Made by a program: the position numbers and the translations under genes. The notes beneath the pieces are model-generated. The model saw nothing but the letters and a program-made list of their open reading frames with translations, had not been told where the DNA came from and ran no database searches. 64,000 nucleotides of DNA from a virus: the IMG/VR virus record IMGVR_UViG_3300050821_003950, positions 31,608 through 95,607 of that record; one strand, given 5' to 3'. Positions 17,401 through 39,719 of this stretch are shown one piece after another; the first letter of the stretch is position 1; the number at the start of each line of letters is the position of its first letter.

Positions 17401-17657
17401 GCAAGATGAACCGCGTCCTCTTCGTCATGAAGCAAAAGTCGGGCGTGTGCGTGAAGCCGATCTCGCGGTCGGACAGCGAGAATGAGTTCCTTCTCAAGCA
17501 GGGGACGACGTTCAAGATCACCGATCGCTATCGGATCCCGAATCAGAAAAACGTGCTCGTGATCGAGTGCGAGGAAGTGCCCAAGAAACAGCCCGAGCCG
17601 AAGACGTGGAAGCGGTATGACGCCACTGGCACACGAGGCGAAGAAGGGTTACAATAG
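14445..17657 (+). CDS. MuF (SPP1 gp7-like) head protein fused to ParB-like, kinase-like and ADP-ribosyltransferase domains
   Basis: TTG after GAGGTG; WESVLDEATSDQC..MHG and PPIHGRCRS (MuF); YVK/EHLA/NWDV/DN/RIDNG (kinase-like); VYRG/SSTS/ENE (ART). Confidence 0.88.
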   Translation: MFELYDEGVVAIDYILKDALHYEVRKALDPLNAHHFEILTKSIAQSLKGHVIPVEDGALKKAMNVLDAKWTEMTPAARGKLLGVASSYLGAPVAHAVMPKIEQTLKFAGKDLVEDTKKSSIHTYDLKISPSLTAHDDLTLSSLITSNGNYIRDQYGKRSEAFSLKAKGVVANGISKGLGSSDITEDLVKELGDAQRGRGYWDMIAMVFANRARTTTQLLSYHEAGITSYLWESVLDEATSDQCRFMHGRRFSMKKAVASIDKVDALKNPEEIEQIQPFLSVGNHPDGGKGIYYDRGNGGGRAFVTQITSSAVGFKDDTGSYSHMGTDESLEDQGLHMPPIHGRCRSTVIPTESATSPGGAPPEPVEEPAAPPPPPKLSGGAKKAAALAQLADVNQGGEVDSSKFFANHSDEIDYLDHPIFSVNSKANWEANKVSKKPNIDDLTSTTPSFDADKVETYIKKPTALDKAKKPQVVKFKGQFLILSGHEQIAAQKLMGQKKAYVDFVDLDKPTKSGLVVSPVEPEPPETSLAHVITPVEPEPPAPPPPLAPALVHTNPRAADPEYLRAEGVNILGEKTGDARGSNKGGFYTGKDGVARYVKFYEDHSQAWSEHLANSIYADLGHAAPESTVFEHDGKIGYASEIVAGKTLKEAMKGTAAETVKYAKKIMSGFAADVLVGNWDVVGLDYDNVMVTNAGQVLRIDNGGSFLMRAKAGRKPPGVLNDITEWDKFIDAGVNPSYSTVAGFAGVHAAGEFTDEMKKQVIAEIGKIMALRDAHGGWKGYVENVAPGIPWADKNLIVTMLESRTNRLEIKAEELKRPAPADREQPIIGHLPVKKLPPGRMPMPLPEGHTDSYKWDEIARSRFRGAPGQDGVTVFTGNTYGMIRAHEQGHEKFEGSSITSSAKKAASDIEKFFKAAKPSPGTTVYRGIHNKKLYENGREIETLSNEKMQALLDREFVEMSATSSTSWSPSTAFSFGNIDESSGGYDSKMNRVLFVMKQKSGVCVKPISRSDSENEFLLKQGTTFKITDRYRIPNQKNVLVIECEEVPKKQPEPKTWKRYDATGTRGEEGLQ

Positions 17658-28877: not shown

Positions 28878-29389
28878 GGCCGCGCTTGCATCACGCCTTT
28901 CTCGTCGAGGTGCGAATGCTCGACGCCGTCGCGACGCGCGCCGCACTCGAACAGTCGACCGACGTGCCCGAGATCACGAGCGGCTACGATGACGACTTCA
29001 AAGAGATCGTCGTCGTCTCGAACCCGACGCGCACGACCGAGCGGCAAGAACAGGATCCGATTTTGATCCCGTCGCAGATCGAGGACCCGACCTTCCGCGC
29101 GCTGATGCAGATGTCGGCCGGCAATATCCCCGACACGAAGCTAGAGCTTGTTTGGGCGCGCAAGGATTTGGAGTGTCTGTCCCTGATCGTCCCCGAGACG
29201 GGCGTACCCTTGATCCGCGTGAACGACCGCGTCGCCTCGATTCGCGATCGATGCGGGTCGCCCATCATGAGGATCTTCACGCCCCCGGGGCTCTACGTGA
29301 CCGACGTGCGGCCGACGTGGGGCATCGCGCAGCGCGGCGACCTCTTCATCGTCACGCTGGACGATCGCGAGCAAGGCGTGCAGCGCTGA
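28874..29389 (+). CDS. head closure/neck protein
   Basis: GYDDDFKE pattern; position in neck module. Confidence 0.6.
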   Translation: MRPRLHHAFLVEVRMLDAVATRAALEQSTDVPEITSGYDDDFKEIVVVSNPTRTTERQEQDPILIPSQIEDPTFRALMQMSAGNIPDTKLELVWARKDLECLSLIVPETGVPLIRVNDRVASIRDRCGSPIMRIFTPPGLYVTDVRPTWGIAQRGDLFIVTLDDREQGVQR

Positions 29390-30024
29390 TGCCTCTTGAG
29401 GGCGATTGGGACAAGGCCGAGAAGGCGCTCGACGGTCTCGGTCCCAAGTTCATGAAGGCGGTGCGGAAGGCGATGCTCGTCGAGGGGCAGACCTTGCGCG
29501 GCGAGGTCGTCAAGGGGCTCGACTCGCAGGCGCCCGCGGGGCAGAGCTTCACGCCGCTCTCTCAGATCACGCTCGCGATGCGACGCTTCGGCGATGCGCG
29601 AAACTCGTCGTTCAAGGGGAGCAAGGCGCTCATCCGTCGGGCCGACCTCCGCAACGGGATCGTGAGCGTGCAGAAGGGCGACGAAGTGTTTGTCGGCGTG
29701 CTCCGCACGGCGCACTCGAAGACGGGCGAGAGCCTCGTGAACATCGCCGAGGAGCACGAAAACGGAGTCGGCGCGATCGTGGTTCCGATCACGCCGAAGT
29801 CGAGTCGTTACTTTCACGCCGCGCTCGCGGCGGCCGGCATCGAGTCCCCGAAGAGCGATGCGACGGGCGGCGGCGTCGCGATCGCGATCATCCGAATCCC
29901 CGCGCGCCCGTTCCTCGGTCCCGTCTTCGAGAAATTCGCCAAGCCCGAGGACGTGCGCGCGCGCATGTATCACCGAATCTCTAACGAGCTGAACCTCGGG
30001 GGCGAGGGCGGCGGGCACGAGTAG
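29389..30024 (+). CDS. neck/tail completion protein (virion morphogenesis family)
   Basis: KALI...LRN.I, IA..HE.G, IPARPFL motifs. Confidence 0.8.
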   Translation: MPLEGDWDKAEKALDGLGPKFMKAVRKAMLVEGQTLRGEVVKGLDSQAPAGQSFTPLSQITLAMRRFGDARNSSFKGSKALIRRADLRNGIVSVQKGDEVFVGVLRTAHSKTGESLVNIAEEHENGVGAIVVPITPKSSRYFHAALAAAGIESPKSDATGGGVAIAIIRIPARPFLGPVFEKFAKPEDVRARMYHRISNELNLGGEGGGHE

Positions 30025-30409
30025 GCGGCGGGCGCTCGTCGGCGGCGACGTTCGATTGCAGCCCCTCGCGGAGCATGTGCCATACGTGCCCGTAGAGGTT
30101 CGCGCGCGCGACGCCTTGCGTGCGGTAGACCTCGTTCTTGAAGTTGTCGTATTCGAGATCGCCGGTCACGAAGACCGAGAGCGCGTGACCGATCGCGCGC
30201 CGCGTGGCGACGAAGCGAAAGCGGTAGTCGGCGTCTTCGGTCTCGACGATGGGGGACGGGGGCTGCACGTCGATGTCGCCGTTCGCGCCCTCGATGAAGC
30301 TCACGAAGTCGAGGGCATCCCGCGCGACCCGGGCGCGCACGAGGACAAAGTGTTTGTTCTCGCGGTGCGCGACGATGGAGAAAAAACCGAAGGGGGTGAG
30401 AAGCCACAA
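29981..30409 (-). CDS. conserved phage-type hypothetical protein
   Basis: TTG start MWLLTPFGFFSIV...VRAR...ADYRFR...Y.NFK. Confidence 0.7.
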   Translation of the reverse strand: MWLLTPFGFFSIVAHRENKHFVLVRARVARDALDFVSFIEGANGDIDVQPPSPIVETEDADYRFRFVATRRAIGHALSVFVTGDLEYDNFKNEVYRTQGVARANLYGHVWHMLREGLQSNVAADERPPPTRARRPRPRGSAR

Positions 30410-30413
30410 ATTG

Positions 30414-30590
30414 CTATCCAGCCTTTCGCCGTCGGGTTGCTCGATCGCGCTCGCAGGTACGGCAGAACCGCGAGCCGCGGTAGAATCTCGTGTTCGATTT
30501 CGTGAAGCGATGTCCGCGAAGGCAGGCAAGCGATCCGCTCACGTTGATCGGTCGTTGGATCTCGCCCGGCTTGAGGTGCGCCTTCCACAT
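30414..30590 (-). CDS. small zinc-binding protein (HNH-associated motif)
   Basis: CLRGHRFTKSNT...RFCRTC. Confidence 0.55.
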   Translation of the reverse strand: MWKAHLKPGEIQRPINVSGSLACLRGHRFTKSNTRFYRGSRFCRTCERDRATRRRKAG

Positions 30591-30592
30591 GA

Positions 30593-32179
30593 TCAGGACT
30601 CGACCTCGGCGTCCGTCTTGCGGCCGACGGGGAGGTAGGTCAGCGGCGCCGGCTTCGATTGGCCCTTGCCGTAGAGCAGCGAGGACACCGAGTGCTCGAT
30701 CTCGTCGGCGTTGAAGTCGTCCTGTTCGACCTCGTGCGCGTAGCGCGTGAAGGCGTTCACGACTGCGCCGCGCGAGATTTCCTTGTGACCGTGCGCCGCG
30801 TAGCTCGTGTCCGCTTCCCACATGGTCATGAGCTTGGGGATCGTCTCGTCGCGCCGGCCGCGCACGGGGACAAGCTCGCGCTCGATGATCGAGTTGAAGA
30901 TCCCGGGCATCAGCTCGGACACCTTCATCGGCATGTCGTCGGCGCTCACGCCCTCGAAGGGCTGCACGCGGTTGTCATCGGCGGCGTAGTTCCACGCGGT
31001 GAGGAAGTGCTCCAAGCGGCCGAGCGCGTCCTTCATCCCCTCGGCGAACCGAGTCGCGAGCGCCTCGACGGTGCCCGTGTGGCGCAGCCGGAAGAGCGGC
31101 GTCGACGCGCGGTCGATGATGATCAGGTTCAGGCAAAGGTTCTGAAAGACGAGCGCGTCGCCGACGAGCGAGCCCCCGCCCGTGTCGTCCGTGCGGACCC
31201 GGATGCCCGCCTTGAAGAACTCGCCCGCGACGTAGTCTTTCGGCTGGACGTTGGAGTGAAACTGCACGTCGAAGATCGCGCCGCGGCCGTCGTAGACGAT
31301 CCGGCACTTCGCGTCCCGAGGCATCGATCGGTCGAGCGCGCGCGCGACCATGTCGACGTCGAAGTTCGTGTAGCGCTTCGGCGAGACCACGCCGAAGACC
31401 TCGCGCGGCGTCGTCGAGCTGTTCGAGTCGCGCGTGCGCAGGCGCACCGCGCGCGGCTCCCATTTCGCGAGCGCGGCATCGTCGAGCCCGTTGCGCATCT
31501 TGATCTCGCTCTGCCCGAGCGCGGTCATCCAATGGTTCACGTTGATCGCGCGCAGCTCGGGCCAGCATTTCGTCAGGTAGGCCGCGCCCCCGATCCCCGA
31601 GTGGTAGCCTACGAGCGTCTCGAACGCGCGCTCGGTCACGCTGTAGCGCTTGTCCGGCAGCGCGAGCAGCCCGCCCTTGGTCATGCGGACCGCGGCGAGC
31701 GGCACGATCTCGTCGCTCCGCTTCTCGGCTTCGATCCTCGTGACGAAGTCGGCGCACGCGGGGCCGACCCCGGGGAGCGCGTCGTGTGCTGCGCGCGAGC
31801 GCGCGGCGTTCGCTACGCCCGTCGAGTTCACCATCGTCCCGCGGCGAAAGATCGTCGCCTTCGGGGCGAAGCCCGCGGCGACGGCGGCTTCGAGGTCGAC
31901 GATCGAGCGCGCCTCGCCGATGACGTCGTGCCCCTCGCGCTTCGGCTCGAACGTGGGCGTGCTCGGCGCGGCCGAGAGGACGATCGCGCTCGACGCCTTG
32001 TTCGGCGGCGCGAGGTTGTCGACCTTCGGCGTCCCGCCGTGCTTCGCGACGAGTTCGTCGGCGACGTCGGACCACGTTGCGAGCGTGGCCCATCGGGTCT
32101 CGCCCCCGAGGGCGATGCGAACGGTCATATCGGGGGACGGCGGCGTGTCTTCGATGCGTGCGGTGTTCTGAGCGGCCAT
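30593..32179 (-). CDS. DUF932-like protein
   Basis: GVVS..Y...D, G......G.GS......lC.N.....RH.G pattern. Confidence 0.7.
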   Translation of the reverse strand: MAAQNTARIEDTPPSPDMTVRIALGGETRWATLATWSDVADELVAKHGGTPKVDNLAPPNKASSAIVLSAAPSTPTFEPKREGHDVIGEARSIVDLEAAVAAGFAPKATIFRRGTMVNSTGVANAARSRAAHDALPGVGPACADFVTRIEAEKRSDEIVPLAAVRMTKGGLLALPDKRYSVTERAFETLVGYHSGIGGAAYLTKCWPELRAINVNHWMTALGQSEIKMRNGLDDAALAKWEPRAVRLRTRDSNSSTTPREVFGVVSPKRYTNFDVDMVARALDRSMPRDAKCRIVYDGRGAIFDVQFHSNVQPKDYVAGEFFKAGIRVRTDDTGGGSLVGDALVFQNLCLNLIIIDRASTPLFRLRHTGTVEALATRFAEGMKDALGRLEHFLTAWNYAADDNRVQPFEGVSADDMPMKVSELMPGIFNSIIERELVPVRGRRDETIPKLMTMWEADTSYAAHGHKEISRGAVVNAFTRYAHEVEQDDFNADEIEHSVSSLLYGKGQSKPAPLTYLPVGRKTDAEVES

Positions 32180-32223
32180 GGTGGCGATCCTTCCGGGGGC
32201 CTCGCGGCCCCCCGTGTGCGGTC

Positions 32224-32559
32224 CTAGAAGCTCGTGTAGAAGCCCGTGTGATTCGTGAAGACCCGGCGCAGGTCGTCGCAGTAGACGCCCTCGATCTCGG
32301 CGACGACGGCGACCTTGAAGCTCGGCGCGCGGCCGATCTTGAAGAACGCGACGGTGTAGGTGTCCGACCCGAGGTCGAGCGTCACGCGGACCCGGTTGAT
32401 CCCGTCCTTGGCGCCGCGGCCGATCGCGAAGGTGAGCGACGTCGAGTCGCCCATGAGGTTCTTGCAGCCCGTCATGGCCGAGAAGCGCGGCCCCCCGAGC
32501 TGAGCGAAAATGGTGTTAGCGACGGTCATGTCGGTCGAGCGGGTTTCGGTGGCGTTCAT
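32224..32559 (-). CDS. conserved phage hypothetical protein
   Basis: TI..QLGG.RF.AMTG...DTY.V.F...VY.D.L...F...TG. Confidence 0.75.
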   Translation of the reverse strand: MNATETRSTDMTVANTIFAQLGGPRFSAMTGCKNLMGDSTSLTFAIGRGAKDGINRVRVTLDLGSDTYTVAFFKIGRAPSFKVAVVAEIEGVYCDDLRRVFTNHTGFYTSF

Positions 32560-32570
32560 GCTGTCCTCTA

Positions 32571-32587
32571 TTGCAGGCGCTATGCCA
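32571..32587 (-). promoter_or_regulatory. sigma-54 (-24/-12) promoter 1
   Basis: TGGCATAGCGCCTGCAA, GG-N10-GC; ATG 14 nt from the -12 C. Confidence 0.75.
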
Positions 32588-32638
32588 GAACCGTCAGAGA
32601 CGCAATATCCACTACATGCAGCGGATCGGCCCTCGCGG

Positions 32639-32660
32639 ACCAGGACCGATCGATCATGGT
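32639..32660. promoter_or_regulatory. palindromic box B
   Basis: ACCAGGACCGATCGATCATGGT; identical at 34875-34896, variant at 33870-33891. Confidence 0.7.
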
Positions 32661-32695
32661 TTTTCGGCACTTCGTGAGATCCTCGATGTTTTCAC

Positions 32696-32713
32696 TATGA
32701 CACTTCCGTCATA
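32696..32713. promoter_or_regulatory. palindromic box A (TATGAC-N6-GTCATA)
   Basis: TATGACACTTCCGTCATA. Confidence 0.75.
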
Positions 32714-32746
32714 GGTCCGCAAGCCCTGCACGCCCCCCGGCCACCC

Positions 32747-33727
32747 TCAAACGAGGGTGGTAGTCGCCGGGGTCGGCCCCGCGGGCGCGTCAGCGGGGCT
32801 CGTAGGCGCCGCGTCGGGCCGTGACGAGGGGGGGCCGTTCTTGTAGCTGGACGACCCTTCGAGCTTCGCCATGAGCAGCTTGCGGGCCGTTTTGAACTCG
32901 TCGCCGATGAGCCCGAGGCGAAGAAGGAAGACGCGGAAGTCATACTTCGCGGTCGCCGGGTTGAAGGTGCGCTTCCGTGCCATGGCGCCCTTGGCGGTCA
33001 GCGCCTTGGTCGCGAGAGCAAGGCAAAGCTGGACGTTGCTCTTGACCTGCCCCGCGTGCAGCGTCCCCTCGAAGTAGCGGAACTCGACGGTCCCGCGGAA
33101 GAAGACCGAGTGCATGTTCAAGCCGTGGTAGCGGCTCTCGTGATAGTGCTGCCCCTGCGCGTAGGTCGACTCCGACCCGTACCACGCGCGGGAGAGTGCC
33201 TCGCGCGAGCCCGGCCGGCTCGAAGCCATGCGGCGGATGAAAGCCTCGTCGACCGGCTTCGTGTAGTGGCCGAGACGGGCCGATGCGACCCCGAGCGCGG
33301 CGACCATGAGCGGCTTCGCGAGCCGCACGAGCGCAGCGGCGTCAAAGCGGTCCGCGGGGGTCCCGACGTGGACGTGCATGCCGCACGAGTAGTTGACCTT
33401 GGCGCCCGCGGCGCGAAGGGCGCGCACGACGCCCTGAATCGACTCGAAGTCGGTCCACGTGCAGATGGGGGTGACGACCTCGCCCGAACCGCCCATGCCC
33501 GAGAGCGACGCGTCCGACATGACGATCCACTTGCGGCCGTCGGGCATCACGATCGCCGTCTTGTCGTAGTGTCCGCCCTCGTAGACCGAGCGACAACCGG
33601 GGAAGAAGACGTCGAGGGCGCGCTTGACGGCGTCCGCGAGGACCGCGCGGCTCACGCCGACAGTCTCAAGCTCCACGCCGAAGGTGAGGGTCTTCATCGT
33701 GTCGATCAGCTTTGCGTTCGGGTTCAT
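32747..33727 (-). CDS. putative amidoligase (COOH-NH2 ligase, Amidoligase_2 family)
   Basis: FGVELE, W....[26 protein letters not shown]. Confidence 0.9.
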
Positions 33728-33738
33728 GCCACCCTACC

Positions 33739-33755
33739 TTGCAGACCGTGTGCCA
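33739..33755 (-). promoter_or_regulatory. sigma-54 promoter 2
   Basis: TGGCACACGGTCTGCAA, GG-N10-GC; ATG 14 nt from the -12 C. Confidence 0.8.
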
Positions 33756-33824
33756 GAACTGGCAATCGTGGACGAACACGGAAACATCGAGGATTCCGCG
33801 GGTCTTTTTCTTCCGGTGTTCGTT

Positions 33825-33935
33825 ACGTATGACACCACTGTCATAGGCAACCAAGATCCGCGGACTTGTACCAGGACCGATCGGTCCGGGGGTCCGTTTT
33901 CTTCGAGAAAAACGTATGACACCACTGTCATAGGC
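33825..33935. repeat. box A - box B - box A array between divergent promoters
   Basis: 24-bp direct repeat ACGTATGACACCACTGTCATAGGC at 33825 and 33912, with box B centred between them. Confidence 0.85.
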
Positions 33936-34014
33936 TCACGATGCCCGGGGCATATTCGGACCACTTACGCACCATTATCCGCGAGTTTAGGTGATTATAG
34001 CGCTCTGCCACTAC

Positions 34015-34031
34015 TGGCACAAGCTCTGCAA
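34015..34031 (+). promoter_or_regulatory. sigma-54 promoter 3
   Basis: TGGCACAAGCTCTGCAA, GG-N10-GC. Confidence 0.8.
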
Positions 34032-34073
34032 TATGCTAGACTCACAAGACACGCAACCGAAAGGACCCCGACC

Positions 34074-34682
34074 ATGAGCTACGAGACCGCCCCCGCAACG
34101 CTCCTCATCGCCACCCACTGCGCCGTGTGCAACCGCGCGCTCGTCGACTCCGTCAGCGTCGAGGCGGGCATCGGCCCCGACTGCCGCGCGAAGCACGGCT
34201 ACGGGGAAGCGCAGGGCGCCCCCGACTACGCGAAGGCCGCGCGCACCCTCGCGACCGAGAACGCGGCGACCGCGGACGAGCTGGCCGCGTGGGTTCTCTT
34301 GGACGCGCAGAGCTTCGCGAACAAGCTCGTGCACCGCGTCGCCTGCGCGGCGACCGCGAACCGCCCCTCGACGCGCGGCGCCTGCATCGTCGCGATCGCG
34401 GCGCTCGGCTTCGACAAGCTCGCCCGGATCCTCGCCCGCGCGGCGAAGGGCATTTGCGTCGACGAGGTCGGCGGGATGCTCGTCGTCGTCTCCCCCTTCT
34501 CGCCGGCTTTCAACGACGCGGCCCGCAAGATCCCCGGGACCCGATGGGTCAAGAACGCCGACGGCAAGGGCGGCGCCCGCCACATTCCCGAGTCCTCGCG
34601 CGGCGCCCTCTGGGCGGCCCTGAAGACGAGCTACCCCAAGGGAACCCCGGTCTTCGGGACGAAGGGAACGACGGTCCTCTAG
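34074..34682 (+). CDS. DUF6011-like zinc-finger protein
   Basis: SD AAAGGA; CAVCNRALVD..S...GIGPDC. Confidence 0.75.
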   Translation: MSYETAPATLLIATHCAVCNRALVDSVSVEAGIGPDCRAKHGYGEAQGAPDYAKAARTLATENAATADELAAWVLLDAQSFANKLVHRVACAATANRPSTRGACIVAIAALGFDKLARILARAAKGICVDEVGGMLVVVSPFSPAFNDAARKIPGTRWVKNADGKGGARHIPESSRGALWAALKTSYPKGTPVFGTKGTTVL

Positions 34683-34821
34683 GGGGACCGCGGCCCCGCG
34701 GGCGCACTCCCGCGGGGCTGCGAGCGAGCATCGCGAGGCGTAGGACTCTCCCCGACCCACGGGGGCTCTGAACAACGGATGGGGGCCGGCTCGCGGTGCT
34801 CGCTCGCAGCGATTGCGTGCG

Positions 34822-34963
34822 TATGACACCACTGTCATAGGCAAAACATCGACGAATCACGAAGTCTCGAAAATACCAGGACCGATCGATCATGGTCCTC
34901 GGGCGCTTTGACGCGTATCTTCGCGTAACTTGGTCTATGCCAGTAGTGGCACACGCGGTGCAA
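34822..34963 (+). promoter_or_regulatory. box A + box B + sigma-54 promoter 4 cassette
   Basis: box A 34822-39, box B 34875-96, TGGCACACGCGGTGCAA 34947-63; inverted homologue of 32571-32713. Confidence 0.8.
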
Positions 34964-34975
34964 TAGAGGTTAGTC

Positions 34976-35242
34976 ATGAACGCCGAGCAAATCGCCAAGG
35001 TCTCTCAGGTCCGCAACGTCGTCGCCGCGCGCGGCGACTCCACGATGGTCTACGACGCCGCGTTGAACGGGCACCCCGTCGCCGTCGAGCGCGTCATGTT
35101 CGAGGTCTTCGGGCACGTGCCCGCCTACTTGCGCCCCCGCGCCCCGGTTGCGAACGCGCACCGCGGCGAGAGCCCGTGCGAGGTCTGCGGCGCCCCCGAC
35201 GGTTGCGCGCACGACGTCGGGTGCCCCGAGGTGCAGTCGTGA
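34976..35242 (+). CDS. hypothetical protein with C-terminal Cys/His cluster
   Basis: first gene after promoter 4; CEVC...C.H...C. Confidence 0.6.
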   Translation: MNAEQIAKVSQVRNVVAARGDSTMVYDAALNGHPVAVERVMFEVFGHVPAYLRPRAPVANAHRGESPCEVCGAPDGCAHDVGCPEVQS

Positions 35243-35460
35243 ACGCCCCCGGCATCGTGTGGGGCGTCTTCGACATGGTCGCCCGCGTCGACGTCGTCGT
35301 CTTTCTCGCCGAGGGCGACGCGATCGACTTCGCTCGCACGAGCAACGCGGGCGGCTCGGTCCCCCGGTTTCAGGTCGAGCGCGACGTCGCGGTCTTCCGG
35401 CACGCCCCCTCGTGGGCGCGCAAGCATGGCGCCTTTCGGTTCAGCGGGGGGCGGTCGTGA
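35239..35460 (+). CDS. hypothetical protein
   Basis: GTGA coupling, SD GAGGTG. Confidence 0.55.
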   Translation: MNAPGIVWGVFDMVARVDVVVFLAEGDAIDFARTSNAGGSVPRFQVERDVAVFRHAPSWARKHGAFRFSGGRS

Positions 35461-35711
35461 GCCGGCCGAGCCGCAAGCCCGAGACGCTGCTCGTCGACGG
35501 GCGGCCCTTCCGGCTCATCGCCGCGCGCGCCCCCGCGCCCCCCCGCGAGCGCGAGGAAGATCGCGCGCTCGAATACCTCGCCCGGCTCGGGCGGGTCGTC
35601 GTCGAGCCCGTCGAGGGCGGGTTCAAGGTCACGATCGCCGCGGGTTCGGTCTGCGGCCCCACGCTCGAAGAGGCGCTCATCGGCGCCGTGAAAAAGGAGA
35701 TGGATCCATGA
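35457..35711 (+). CDS. hypothetical protein
   Basis: GTGA coupling. Confidence 0.55.
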   Translation: MSRPSRKPETLLVDGRPFRLIAARAPAPPREREEDRALEYLARLGRVVVEPVEGGFKVTIAAGSVCGPTLEEALIGAVKKEMDP

Positions 35712-36379
35712 GCATCATCCACACAATCACGCTCGCGAACGAGCGACGCATGAGCGGCACCGTCTCGGCGACGCGCAAGTCAGAGAACCGCCGCTACGCC
35801 GCGTGCGTAACCGCGACGGCGACCGAAGAGACTGTTCGGATCGACGAGGCGTCGAAGGCCGCGGACGAGGCGAAGCTCGTCGAGCTGCGCGCAGCGCTGG
35901 CCGAGGCGGTCGCGCGGGTCGGCGTGAGCGAGGCGGACGCGCGCAAGTGGTACGAGGCCGCGGCGGCTCGATGGTACGACGGCGGCAGCGGCAAGGACGC
36001 GCAAGGCTTTCTCGCGACGGTCGAGCGTGTTCGCAAAGAGAAGGGGCTCGACGACTGGCGCAGCCGAAACGAGGTCGAGCGGCTCGCACGGATCGACTGC
36101 GCGGCGCGCGGCATCGAGGACCCCTACGCCAAGGGCGGCAAGTGGGACGTCGTGCACGCGGCCGACGAGGTCGAGCGACTCGATCGTGATCTGAAGCGAC
36201 GTCGCCCGATCGTCATCGGCGCCGAGGGCGTACTCGGATGGTGCGGCTCGGTCGCGCTCGCGCAGAAGGCGACGGGAGCCCGGACCGCGGCTTGGCACTC
36301 GGCGCGCGGCTACAAGATCACGATCCGAACCGACATCACGGTCCGCGAGACCGTGAAGCGCGCCCCGAAGAACCTATGA
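35708..36379 (+). CDS. hypothetical protein
   Basis: ATGA coupling, SD AAGGAG. Confidence 0.65.
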   Translation: MSIIHTITLANERRMSGTVSATRKSENRRYAACVTATATEETVRIDEASKAADEAKLVELRAALAEAVARVGVSEADARKWYEAAAARWYDGGSGKDAQGFLATVERVRKEKGLDDWRSRNEVERLARIDCAARGIEDPYAKGGKWDVVHAADEVERLDRDLKRRRPIVIGAEGVLGWCGSVALAQKATGARTAAWHSARGYKITIRTDITVRETVKRAPKNL

Positions 36380-36392
36380 CAGTGTTGACATA
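36375..36392. promoter_or_regulatory. box A copy overlapping a TTGACA -35
   Basis: TATGACAGTGTTGACATA, 16/18 to the reverse of the 33828 copy. Confidence 0.65.
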
Positions 36393-36423
36393 CGCGGCCC
36401 GAGGCCGCAGACTAGAGGACACC

Positions 36424-36696
36424 ATGAAGACACGATCGTTCAATCTTCCCGAGCCCGACCCCGCGATGAATCCGGTCCTGCACGCCATGGCGCGAGAGAT
36501 GGGCGGGCGCGTGATCCTGCAAGGCCCCGGCGCCGTCGGCTTCGGGCACTGACGAGCCGATGGTCGACGTCGGCAGCTACGACGAGATCCGCAAGGGGCA
36601 GGTCTGCGGCGGGCGCTTCCTGCTCTCGGTCTCGCACGAGCGCGTCCTCGTCGGCGTCGCTTCGAAAAGGACGGAAGGTTGGAGGTCGCATCATGA
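36424..36696 (+). pseudogene. possibly frameshifted small gene
   Basis: ORF 36424..36552 stops; coding-like codon bias continues in the +1 frame. Confidence 0.3.
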
Positions 36697-37154
36697 ACCG
36701 CGTCTTCGTCTACGGGACCCTTATGCGCGGGTTCGGCAATCATCGGCTGCTCTCGAACAGCATCTTCGTCCGCGAGGCGCGCACCGTGCCCATCTTCGAG
36801 ATGATCTCGCTCGGCGGCTTCCCCGCGATCCTCGCGGGCGGCAAGACGTCGATCGTCGGCGAGGTGTTCGACGTCGGACACGCGACGCTCGCGCAACTCG
36901 ATCGGCTCGAAGGTCACCCGCATTTCTACGAGCGCATGCTGATCGCGCTCGAAAGCGGCAATGAGCTGGACACGTGGAGCGGCGGGAAGGTCTACGCCTA
37001 CGTGCTCTCGCGCGGGCGCATGCGCTTCGGTCGAACCGACCCGGTCGTCGCGTCGGGCTCGTGGCGCGAGCACGTGCAGGCGGAAGAGGCGCGCGCGCAC
37101 GAAGACGACGAGCCCGAGGGGTGGTTCGCCGACGAGACCGAGGCGACGCCATGA
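36693..37154 (+). CDS. gamma-glutamylcyclotransferase (AIG2-like) 1
   Basis: VFVYGTL..G..NH, GEV, LD.LEGHP.FY.R. Confidence 0.9.
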   Translation: MNRVFVYGTLMRGFGNHRLLSNSIFVREARTVPIFEMISLGGFPAILAGGKTSIVGEVFDVGHATLAQLDRLEGHPHFYERMLIALESGNELDTWSGGKVYAYVLSRGRMRFGRTDPVVASGSWREHVQAEEARAHEDDEPEGWFADETEATP

Positions 37155-37459
37155 AACGGCGAACGCTCCGCGTGCAGCTCGTCGAGACGAAGCGGACTGA
37201 TCTCGTCTGCATCGGGTGCGGTCAGTTCCGAACGCAGTTCGCGATCGTCGTCACGGGCGAGAGCGACGAGCACGCGCAGGCGGGCGTCCACAAAGTGTGC
37301 ATCGGCTCGATCAAGGTCGGCGGCAAGCGGCCCGACGTCGAGCCCCCGCCCCCGCGTCCGACGCGACGCGCGCCGAAGAGGATCGATCGCCCCGTCGACG
37401 ACGTCGTCGCCCGACTCGCGGCCGAGGAAGACGCCTTGATCAAGGAGCTACAAGGATGA
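37151..37459 (+). CDS. small zinc-binding protein
   Basis: CIGC...HKVC; ATGA coupling. Confidence 0.55.
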   Translation: MKRRTLRVQLVETKRTDLVCIGCGQFRTQFAIVVTGESDEHAQAGVHKVCIGSIKVGGKRPDVEPPPPRPTRRAPKRIDRPVDDVVARLAAEEDALIKELQG

Positions 37460-37914
37460 GTCTCGTTTTCGCCTACGGCAGCAACTTGAACCGCGAACAG
37501 ATGCTCGCGCGCTGCCCCTCGTCTCGCATCGTCGTCGCGGCGACGCTGCACGGCGCAGCGCTCACGTTCGCCGGCTTCTCGGTTCGGTGGGGCGGCCCCG
37601 TCGCGACCTTCATCGGCCGGCGCAAGGCGACGCTCCCCGGTCTGCTCTACCGCGTCGACCCGATCGACCTCTGGCGCCTCGACGGCTACGAGGGCGCGCC
37701 GCACACCTACGCGCGCGTGCTCGTGAACGTCATCTCGGCCGAGACGAGGCGCGAGGCTCCCGCGATCGCGTACAAGCTCACGAGCGATTGGAACATGGGC
37801 GAGCTTCCCTCGATGGACTACCTCTGCACGATCGACCGCGCCTACCGCGACCTCGGCTTCGATCGGGGGCACCTCTTCCGCGCCGCGTTTCGTCAGCGCG
37901 CGCGCTCGGATTGA
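37456..37914 (+). CDS. gamma-glutamylcyclotransferase 2
   Basis: FAYGSNL...QM..RCP, LD.YEG, PS..YL..I...Y. Confidence 0.9.
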   Translation: MSLVFAYGSNLNREQMLARCPSSRIVVAATLHGAALTFAGFSVRWGGPVATFIGRRKATLPGLLYRVDPIDLWRLDGYEGAPHTYARVLVNVISAETRREAPAIAYKLTSDWNMGELPSMDYLCTIDRAYRDLGFDRGHLFRAAFRQRARSD

Positions 37915-37950
37915 CAGCTTGGACGATAATGTCATAGGTAAAGGAACCTC

Positions 37951-38370
37951 ATGTCCATCTCGAACCTCGGCGCTCTGATCGTCACGCACCCCGAAGACGC
38001 AAAAGAGCAAATCCTCGCGGCCGTACTGCGCGCGAAGGGAGATCGGAAGAAGGCCGCCGAGCTGCTCGCGACGACGCATCGATCGTTCTATCGCTTCGTC
38101 GAGAAGCTTCGCTTGTGGGACGAGATCGACAAGCTGATCAGCGAGAACGGCTTCCCGCAGATCCCCGGCCCGCCGCGCTCGGCCGAGAAGATCAAGAGCG
38201 CGATCGTGCTGATGAAGGGCGACCTCACGCGCGCGGCTCGCGTCCTCGAAGTGCGACCCGGCGCGCTCGAAGGTAGAATCCAAGAGCTGAACCTATGGGA
38301 CGAATTGAACGCCACGCTCAAGGCATCGAAGCTCAAGCCGCTCGAACGACCTCGTCAGCCTCGGGCCTAG
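37951..38370 (+). CDS. tandem Fis-type HTH protein
   Basis: two copies of I..A.....GD...AA..L.......(L/F)......L.LWDE; no AAA+ domain. Confidence 0.8.
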   Translation: MSISNLGALIVTHPEDAKEQILAAVLRAKGDRKKAAELLATTHRSFYRFVEKLRLWDEIDKLISENGFPQIPGPPRSAEKIKSAIVLMKGDLTRAARVLEVRPGALEGRIQELNLWDELNATLKASKLKPLERPRQPRA

Positions 38371-38636
38371 AGTCGGCTCGATGGTGGCGGGCTCGCGCGC
38401 GCGCGATCGTGGCGTGCACGCTCGACGGCTTCGAGGGTGAGCGCATTTTCGCGGCGCGCCTGCGCTACGAACTGCGCCGTGATTTTGCGCGGTACAAGCG
38501 GCGCAACGCGCCAGTCCACACGCGCACGATCTGGCGCCAGGTCATTGCGCGCGCGTGCGCGTGCAAGGGCATCCGGTCGATCACGGACAACCGCATGCGT
38601 CAGCTTCCGCTGTTCGAGCAAGGGCGAGCCGCGTAG
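38295..38636 (+). CDS. hypothetical basic protein (start uncertain)
   Basis: fills the gap before the tail genes; ends QLPLF. Confidence 0.35.
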   Translation: MGRIERHAQGIEAQAARTTSSASGLESARWWRARARAIVACTLDGFEGERIFAARLRYELRRDFARYKRRNAPVHTRTIWRQVIARACACKGIRSITDNRMRQLPLFEQGRAA

Positions 38637-38639
38637 ACT
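38611..38639 (+). promoter_or_regulatory. leaderless-type promoter
   Basis: TGTTCG-17-TAGACT-6-GTG. Confidence 0.65.
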
Positions 38640-38645
38640 CTGGGC

Positions 38646-39719
38646 GTGCCGACGCCCCCGCCGACCATCACGAGCATCACGCCCGCGATCGGGCTCGCCT
38701 CGGGCGACTCGCTCGTCTCGATCGTAGGGACGGGCTTCAACGTCCCCGTCGACGCTCCCGACACGAACAGCGACTACGACCCGCTCTCGCTCACGACGGC
38801 GACGCAAACCGTCCTCGTCTACTTCGACGGCGTGCTCGCCGAACAGGTTTGGGTTCGATCGTCGACGCTCATCGAGGCGCGCATCCCTCCCGGCAACGCG
38901 GGCAGTCCTTACGTCCCCCCGGGGCGGCAAGTGACGGTGATGCTCGTCAACGTCGCGCAGGGCACGATGACGCCGCTCGCAGGTCAGAGCGTCTCGGTGC
39001 CGAACGCGTTCACCTACGCGCTGCCGATCCTGACGAGCGAGTACGAGAGCGACCTCGCGCGCGCGATCCGAACGCTCTTGCAGCTCATGAAGGGACAGCT
39101 CCTCACGGTCGAAGTGAACTACGCCGTGCAGACCGATTACGACGCGAACACGGGCGACGAGCTACACGTGACGAAATTCGCGAAGCTCCCCGGCATCGTG
39201 ATCGTCGGTCCCGACATGCGCGAGAACCGCTTCTACTCGCAGAACGAACAGCCCGATTTCGACGACGGGACGATCTCGAAGCTCGACGGCGTATCGCCCG
39301 CGGGTTTCTTCGAGACGCGCGTACCGTACACGGTCGACCTCGTCTTCGACGTCATCGGCGCGAGCGACAATAAAGTCGAGCTGCTCAATCTCGAAGCGAA
39401 CTTCATCTCGTTCATGCACAAGAACAAATTCCTCTACATGAACCGCTCCGCGACCGACGCGTCGAAGGGCGAGATCCGATGGGAGATGGATTTCGAGCCG
39501 CACGGTCAGCCGAAGAACACGACGACGCCGAACAACTCCAACCTTCGATCGTGGGAAGCGAAGATCGTCGTGCGCGGCTTCGACATCGAGACGTTCTCGG
39601 GGCTCGCGACCGATGGTGCGCCAGATCCGGCAAGCCTCATCCCGGCGCACGCGATCGTCGAGCATGGACGGTACGCCGACGACGTCGTCGTGAAGGCCGA
39701 ACAGCTCGACGACGACTGA
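38646..39719 (+). CDS. IPT/TIG-domain tail terminator/completion protein
   Basis: PTITSITPA.G...G...V.I.GTGF; position before the sheath. Confidence 0.75.
   Translation: MPTPPPTITSITPAIGLASGDSLVSIVGTGFNVPVDAPDTNSDYDPLSLTTATQTVLVYFDGVLAEQVWVRSSTLIEARIPPGNAGSPYVPPGRQVTVMLVNVAQGTMTPLAGQSVSVPNAFTYALPILTSEYESDLARAIRTLLQLMKGQLLTVEVNYAVQTDYDANTGDELHVTKFAKLPGIVIVGPDMRENRFYSQNEQPDFDDGTISKLDGVSPAGFFETRVPYTVDLVFDVIGASDNKVELLNLEANFISFMHKNKFLYMNRSATDASKGEIRWEMDFEPHGQPKNTTTPNNSNLRSWEAKIVVRGFDIETFSGLATDGAPDPASLIPAHAIVEHGRYADDVVVKAEQLDDD

Follow-up and report, generated by a model that had tools for sequence, protein, structure and literature searches.

Sigma-54-type promoters of an inserted phage island and their candidate activator in the Myxococcota host

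The IMG/VR virus record IMGVR_UViG_3300050821_003950 (G000 below) is 95.6 kb long, with 65% GC and a CheckV completeness of 74%; we analysed its bases 31608-95607, a stretch of 64,000 nucleotides that we call the window and whose own numbering we use throughout. The window carries four candidate sigma-54 (RpoN) promoters, which would serve the genes of an inserted accessory island, and each lies downstream of a palindrome, box A, that also stands beside the gene for an enhancer-binding protein (EBP) in Myxococcota, the phylum of the host. Taken together, the comparisons make it probable that the sigma-54 promoters of the island are driven by this host EBP acting at box A; because the promoters sit behind the DNA site that neighbours the host activator, it is probably a host signalling protein, and not the phage, that turns the island on. 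The original prediction, that an accessory island is wired to a host EBP, is thereby supported, because no phage activator was found, the host phylum has rpoN, the island is a true insertion and box A corresponds to the palindrome adjacent to the host EBP gene.

Four -24/-12 sites and their upstream cassettes

The motif TGGCAY-N6-TGCAA has four exact matches in the window, all of them intergenic and each aimed at a gene start; 100 dinucleotide-preserving shuffles, which served as the null model, yielded 0.42 matches even with one mismatch allowed, and none of the 100 reached four. Extending the search to the rest of the 95.6-kb record, as had been proposed with the original prediction, gave no further exact copy of this motif, or of the box A and box B elements described below, outside window positions 32571-34963.

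All four sites read TGGCA(C/T)-N5-(C/G)TGCAA with GG and GC exactly 10 nt apart, the signature of sigma-54, and a fresh scan returned the predicted positions and GG-N10-GC spacing exactly. Promoters S1 (TGGCAT-N6-TGCAA, 32571-32587, minus strand) and S2 (TGGCAC-N6-TGCAA, 33739-33755, minus strand) each have an ATG, at 32559 and 33727 respectively, that starts 14 nt past the C of the GC, and at S4 (TGGCAC-N6-TGCAA, 34947-34963, plus strand) the ATG at 34976 starts 15 nt past it. Alone among the four, S3 (TGGCAC-N6-TGCAA, 34015-34031, plus strand) has a leader, about 31 nt long, and a GAAAGGA ribosome-binding site before its ATG at 34074. Their sequence and placement support the assignment of the four sites as sigma-54 -24/-12 promoters. 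A further palindrome, TGCCA-N4-TGGCA, overlaps the -24 element at S2 (33751-33764), S3 (34006-34019) and S4 (34938-34951), and in this position over the promoters it could serve a dimeric repressor as its operator; S1 has CTGACG in place of TGCCA, and the palindrome is missing there.

There are four exact copies of box A (TATGAC-N6-GTCATA), at 32696, 33828, 33915 and 34822, and nine matches against 0.33 expected when two mismatches are allowed; box B (ACCAGGACCGATCG) has three exact copies, at 32639, 33870 and 34875. The distance from the centre of box A to the GG is 119, 83, 93 and 118 bp at S1 to S4. An enhancer is expected to have dyad symmetry and to lie some 70-150 bp upstream of the -24 element, and this is true of box A, 83-119 bp from the GG. 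Within the two outer cassettes box A and box B are 55 bp apart and box B is 63-64 bp from the GG, and between the divergent promoters box B is 43-44 bp away from either box A; the positions and phased distances in the original prediction agree with this recount.

The first cassette consists of box B at 32639-32660, an imperfect 22-bp palindrome with GATCGATC, and box A at 32696-32713 (TATGACACTTCCGTCATA), which scores 21.4 bits on a matrix derived from host sites, introduced below. The divergent enhancer region (33828-33932) holds box A at 33828-33845, box B at 33870-33891 and a second box A at 33915-33932, both box A copies scoring 23.5 bits, and the enhancer of cassette 4 (34822-34896) is made up of box A (34822-34839), a AAACATCGACGAATC element (34844-34858) and box B (34875-34896). 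The cassettes are longer repeats than was noted at first: the outer two share about 76% similarity across 50 nt surrounding box A, and a conserved AAACATCGAGGAT element recurs in the cassettes. Two weak box A-like sites score about 16.5 bits, one at 36374, upstream of the island's cyclotransferase genes, and the other at 37918 (16.6 bits), just upstream of a gene for a protein with tandem helix-turn-helix (HTH) repeats; the other box A-like sites, including one at 17616, score below 14 bits on the host-derived matrix.

A second protein probably binds box B and the TGCCA-N4-TGGCA palindrome, and for box B the tandem-HTH protein of the island is the evident candidate. Each of the three box B copies holds GATCGATC or GATCGGTC, and with it one or two Dam-type GATC sites, whose methylation could affect binding there.

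The host phylum and its candidate activator

The large terminase of G000 is 55-57% identical to matches in about a dozen of 401 Myxococcota genomes, and four of these genomes (G284, G057, G394 and G214) carry prophages syntenic with the record over the replication, head and tail modules. By terminase identity and prophage synteny the host phylum is Myxococcota, and the phage is a temperate phage of that phylum. Cultured relatives were rejected as a guide to the host; the top match of the terminase among cultured phages, that of Brevibacillus phage Emery, has 35% identity, too low for inference. The Sigma54_DBD domain of RpoN turned up in each of five Myxococcota genomes examined, among them the four that carry the syntenic prophages.

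The syntenic prophages also delimit the island. Homologues of its flanking genes (window ~28993-30021 and ~38637-39716) adjoin in all four, with about 66 bp between them in G284, and the stretch ~30025-38640 is therefore an insertion specific to this phage: an accessory island of 8.6 kb (30025-38640) that is absent from the syntenic Myxococcota prophages, none of which has the sigma-54 motifs and box A. The absence of an AAA+ EBP gene, noted at first for the window, was borne out there and also beyond it: a domain search found neither Sigma54_activat (PF00158) nor Sigma54_DBD in the whole 95.6-kb record, at its 74% completeness.

A perfect TATGACA-N4-TGTCATA occurs in 14 of the 401 Myxococcota genomes, and the reversed control in none. 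In genome G325, a perfect box A lies 58 nt past the stop of a gene for a 617-residue protein with the domain order FHA-GAF-Sigma54_activat-AAA_lid-HTH_8, and 51 nt ahead of TGGCACGTCTTCTGCAA (TGGCAC-N6-TGCAA), which is followed by a lipoprotein gene; at this locus, the one examined for it, the activator gene has a Ser/Thr kinase gene upstream of it. Full-length matches to the EBP, at 48-84% identity, were found in 229 of 301 sampled Myxococcota genomes, as a single match in all but one. We took the 30 best orthologous EBP loci as host loci. A GACR-N4-YGTC palindrome lies at most 200 nt past the EBP stop in 25 of them, often overlapping the stop codon, and such sites number 28 in the 6.2 kb past the stops versus 54 in the other 134.5 kb, an 11-fold enrichment. 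Further on by 43-88 nt, and before a conserved lipoprotein gene, a sigma-54 promoter is found at 21 of the 30 loci.

The consensus of the host palindromes is CCATGACATCGATGTCATGG (ATGACA-N4-TGTCAT). On the matrix derived from them, host sites score 15-26 bits and phage box A 21-28 bits, and high scores in G000 and in a second virus record, G001, are confined to the islands. In G057, whose prophage is syntenic with the record, two box A-like sites with a GTCATAG flank, and then GGCAC-N5-TTGC, come after the EBP orthologue. Judged from its conserved position alone, box A is most probably the enhancer of the host FHA-GAF-AAA+-HTH_8 EBP. No NCBIfam equivalog matched this protein above its cut-off, and a literature search gave neither a name nor a Myxococcus xanthus orthologue. 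NmpR was considered as the activator and rejected, its site GCGCA-N5-TGCGC being different from ATGACA-N4-TGTCAT (PMC11841059).

Box A also turned up elsewhere in bacterial genomes. In G365, G370 and G310 (loci L178, L179 and L180) a conserved gene whose product begins MYRLKA has a perfect copy about 50 nt upstream of it; this locus has a GGAGAT ribosome-binding site and no sigma-54 promoter, so that box A occurs in a non-sigma-54 context as well. In two low-GC Bdellovibrio-like genomes (L137:1459-1543 and L140:1799-1882) a conserved box A is followed by TGGCACAAATAATGCA before a small gene. These Bdellovibrio-like loci, and a viral contig of 38% GC (L228) with the same design, indicate that the activator site may extend past the high-GC Myxococcota.

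Other viral contigs and the competing readings

A scan of IMG/VR for box A led to G001, a virus record of 618.7 kb (the 619-kb phage below) that is 92% complete and has 58% GC. All seven of its box A copies and all four of its TGGCAC-N6-TGCA sites fall inside 3.1 kb, in arrays of up to three box A per promoter; PF00158 was not found in this record, and it has only two proteins in common with G000, neither of them in the islands. Between two of its promoter cassettes (L105:8440-8500) we observed a tRNA-like 3' half with a GGTTCGATTCC T-arm. Two further IMG/VR scans, which required TGGCAC-N6-TGCA at 40-101 nt past ATGACA-N4-TGTCAT, gave nine more viral contigs (55-67% GC, one of 38%), making at least ten other contigs with G001 included, where a rough hand estimate of chance matches is about 0.35 per scan. 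Two of the contigs have direct terminal repeats and are complete genomes, namely G405 (90.3 kb) and G408 (65.5 kb); they carry three and two promoters respectively, and PF00158 was found in neither (both 100% complete). Myxococcus phage Mx8 has no TGGCAY-N6-TGCA site, and a first scan of genome contigs (box A, a gap of 45-75 nt, then the promoter) gave four matches, some of them probably due to chance. Box A recurs in these contigs of unrelated phages; box B was not seen in the loci checked, nor were the AAACATCGAGGAT element and the TGCCA-N4-TGGCA palindrome, these loci being G001, the amidoligase-related loci and the viral loci of the first box A scan.

The distance to the start codon recurs as well. 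In G001 a GTG lies 14 nt past the C at three of the four promoters, the fourth having a leader of about 45 nt, and eight more promoters, in the other viral contigs, have an offset of 14 or 15, usually with GC immediately before ATGA; in total, an ATG or GTG in frame with the open reading frame (ORF) lies 14-15 nt past the C at 14 promoters in 8 viral contigs. At the host loci the lipoprotein start is also near the promoter, at less regular distances. With this geometry the mRNAs would be leaderless or nearly so, starting at or just before the start codon. The proteins encoded behind S1 and S2, a phrog_9437 protein and an amidoligase, have a 10-residue N-terminal extension (MNxxxxxxxx) ahead of a second Met (32529-32559 and 33697-33727); the promoter cassette may bring its own start codon, fused in frame to the gene.

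Sigma-54 holoenzyme is unable to open DNA alone, and sigma-54 promoters are silent without an activator. On the reading that we prefer, the phage would have no AAA+ activator of its own, and its promoters would rely on one or two strong box A copies 83-119 bp upstream; box A would be bound by the conserved host EBP with its FHA, GAF, AAA+ and HTH_8 domains, and the EBP, once active, would reach the promoters by looping and so turn on four transcription units, namely the phrog_9437 and phrog_1362 genes, the amidoligase gene, the DUF6011 gene, and a series of small genes, two gamma-glutamyl cyclotransferases among them. In this scheme we infer the transcription start sites, the dependence on RpoN and on the EBP, the pairing of proteins with boxes and the signal that is sensed. 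Among sequencing runs, no RNA run was listed as containing this DNA, and two DNA runs contained a small share of the words sampled from it.

A wider proposal, which we put forward tentatively and regard as possible rather than likely, is that one promoter class is common to many unrelated myxobacterial phages from 65 kb to 619 kb, and that its enhancer, sigma-54 promoter and leaderless start are all copied from one conserved host operon under a Ser/Thr-kinase-linked FHA-GAF activator. Such phages would read the signalling state of the host, possibly an envelope or infection stress that they themselves trigger, and so fire early or accessory genes without a phage factor; in G000 the tandem-HTH protein and box B would add a brake under phage control.

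Several observations weigh against activation by the host EBP. The best EBP match in the prophage-bearing genome G284 has no box A downstream; of the 16 perfect box A sites in Myxococcota about 13 lack a sigma-54 promoter in their vicinity, and another protein could read the palindrome; and with the record only about 74% complete, an activator could sit in the missing part. The start-codon geometry is also open to challenge: Shine-Dalgarno-like runs (AGAGGA, AGAGG and GGTAGGG) stand between the -12 element and the ATG at S1, S4 and S2 and, if used, would put the transcription start further upstream, and alignments with homologues begin only at residue 10-11, at the second Met, in both the amidoligase and the phrog_9437 protein, so that the first ATG of these two genes may not be the real start.

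The alternative that survives best, which we nevertheless consider unlikely, keeps the promoters sigma-54-dependent and dispenses with the host EBP, box A being read by a phage factor: the tandem-HTH protein, an activator encoded in the missing ~26% of the genome, or an activator of unrecognised type. The tandem-HTH gene (37951-38370, plus strand) is the final gene of the island and encodes 139 residues with two Fis/HTH_8-like repeats and no ATPase domain (weak HTH_8 match, E=9e-5); the protein is weakly similar to the HTH of the host EBP, with 31% identity over 32 residues, and both the weak box A-like sites, of which that at 37918 is just upstream of this gene, and the 74% completeness of the record fit such a factor. 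Yet we know of no sigma-54 activator without an AAA+ domain, the two complete phage genomes have the promoters and were found to have no PF00158, and box A is conserved beside the host EBP gene across the phylum. The two proteins common to G000 and G001, moreover, lie outside the islands. Nor has the tandem-HTH protein a homologue in five other phages with box A promoters, and an HTH_8-like ORF of G001 is unrelated to it; we accordingly rejected the tandem-HTH protein as a trans factor common to the phages. That it binds box B, or competes for box A, we raise as a hypothesis only.

It is more improbable still that the motif is not a sigma-54 promoter at all and is instead an operator or a promoter of another kind, such as a phage-specific one or a sigma-70-type one with a -35 TTGCCA/CTGCCA and a -10 TGCAAT 16 nt apart, with transcription starting elsewhere. 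At S2 to S4 a TGCCA element does lie 16 nt upstream of TGCAAT or TGCAAG, and the Shine-Dalgarno-like purine runs between motif and ATG fit a start further upstream. However, TGCAAT has a G at the key -11 position, and the upstream TGCCA is missing in G001 and the other phages, whereas GG-N10-GC and TGGCA...TGCA are kept at all eight sites of G000 and G001 and the same motif stands behind the host EBP gene in 21 of the 30 genomes; unrelated phages, moreover, would not have a phage-specific promoter in common. That the box A arrays are mainly decoys, which titrate the host EBP and shut its own operon with promoter activation secondary, we think least probable of all, for although phage box A is stronger than most host sites and up to three copies precede a promoter in G001, each array comes with a gene start and with a sigma-54 promoter of correct spacing and orientation, neither of which a decoy would need, and the two roles are not mutually exclusive.

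The island, its genes and known systems

By its gene content and position the island is of the moron type, placed between structural genes and provided with its own promoters and hairpins. On the minus strand, the probable S1 operon begins with the gene for the phrog_9437 protein (32224-32559; 111 residues, function unknown), followed by that for a phrog_1362 protein of 528 residues (30593-32179), both assigned by PHROG match; the profile covers the phrog_9437 protein from residue 11 onward, and its first 10 residues may thus be an extension. Behind S2 lies the Amidoligase_2 gene (32747-33727, minus strand; 326 residues; Pfam E=6e-46, phrog_2443 E=7e-70), and the DUF6011 gene (202 residues; Pfam E=8e-12) occupies 34074-34682 on the plus strand. 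Between the DUF6011 gene and cassette 4 is a strong hairpin (34717-34810) whose 24-nt arms are 92% complementary; it is likely a terminator or insulator.

The plus-strand gene run 3' of S4 (34976-37914) was delimited by codon-position GC profile, ORF starts and Pfam and PHROG matches. It comprises genes at 34976-35242, 35239-35460, 35457-35711, 35708-36379, 36693-37154, 37151-37459 and 37456-37914, that is, several small unknown genes and two gamma-glutamyl cyclotransferases of the GGACT family (36693-37154 and 37456-37914). The Amidoligase_2 protein thus shares the island with two AIG2/GGACT gamma-glutamyl cyclotransferases, a pairing that suggests a make-and-break system for a gamma-glutamyl or peptide-like modification. 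The amidoligase itself was rejected as a guide to the promoters: the gene is widespread, and the island motifs are not shared by its relatives (80 viral loci, at most 50% identity).

If the arrangement is confirmed, phages tie genes to one specific host EBP, and thus to very tight control, because sigma-54 promoters are silent without their activator. A conserved, unnamed Myxococcota EBP would gain a candidate DNA site (ATGACA-N4-TGTCAT) and a target operon, and the common cis-motif could aid the host assignment of uncultured phages, the 619-kb phage among them. To our knowledge, enhancer-dependent promoters joined to leaderless starts have been little described, and the combination is an unusual one. 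A literature search found no paper on a phage that carries the enhancer of a named host EBP.

Morons are usually described as accessory genes with their own promoter and terminator, set between late genes, and their promoters as sigma-70 promoters. The island resembles them in lying between conserved structural genes, in having its own promoters and hairpins and in encoding accessory enzymes; it differs in its four enhancer-dependent promoters, which would tie expression to a single host signalling protein.

The promoters are like the classical sigma-54 promoters (glnAp2 with NtrC, nifH with NifA, and the NmpR regulon of Myxococcus xanthus; PMC11841059) in having the -24 GG and -12 GC 10 nt apart in TGGCAC-N5-xTGCA, in having dyad activator sites, often paired, about 80-120 bp upstream, and in that the activator is an AAA+ protein with a C-terminal HTH_8. 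They differ in that the promoters here belong to a phage and the activator would be encoded by the host alone, that the input domains of the putative activator are FHA and GAF and that it matches no named NCBIfam family, and that the start codon stands at the predicted transcription start; from the NmpR regulon they differ further in the site, ATGACA-N4-TGTCAT in place of GCGCA-N5-TGCGC (PMC11841059).

Use of sigma-54 by a phage has a precedent, and in this respect the design is not unique: Pseudomonas phage YuA has one sigma-54-like promoter, supported by the mapping of start sites and by a promoter-trap experiment (Ceyssens et al. 2008, cited in PMC10914365). The two cases are alike in that a phage uses, or here would use, the RpoN holoenzyme of its host. 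YuA belongs to a host of another phylum, and the passage that cites it names no upstream activator site, cognate EBP, leaderless layout or repeated cassettes (PMC10914365). What the present case would add is a different co-opted activator site, a clear counterpart of that site on the host side, and promoters that are confined to one inserted island.

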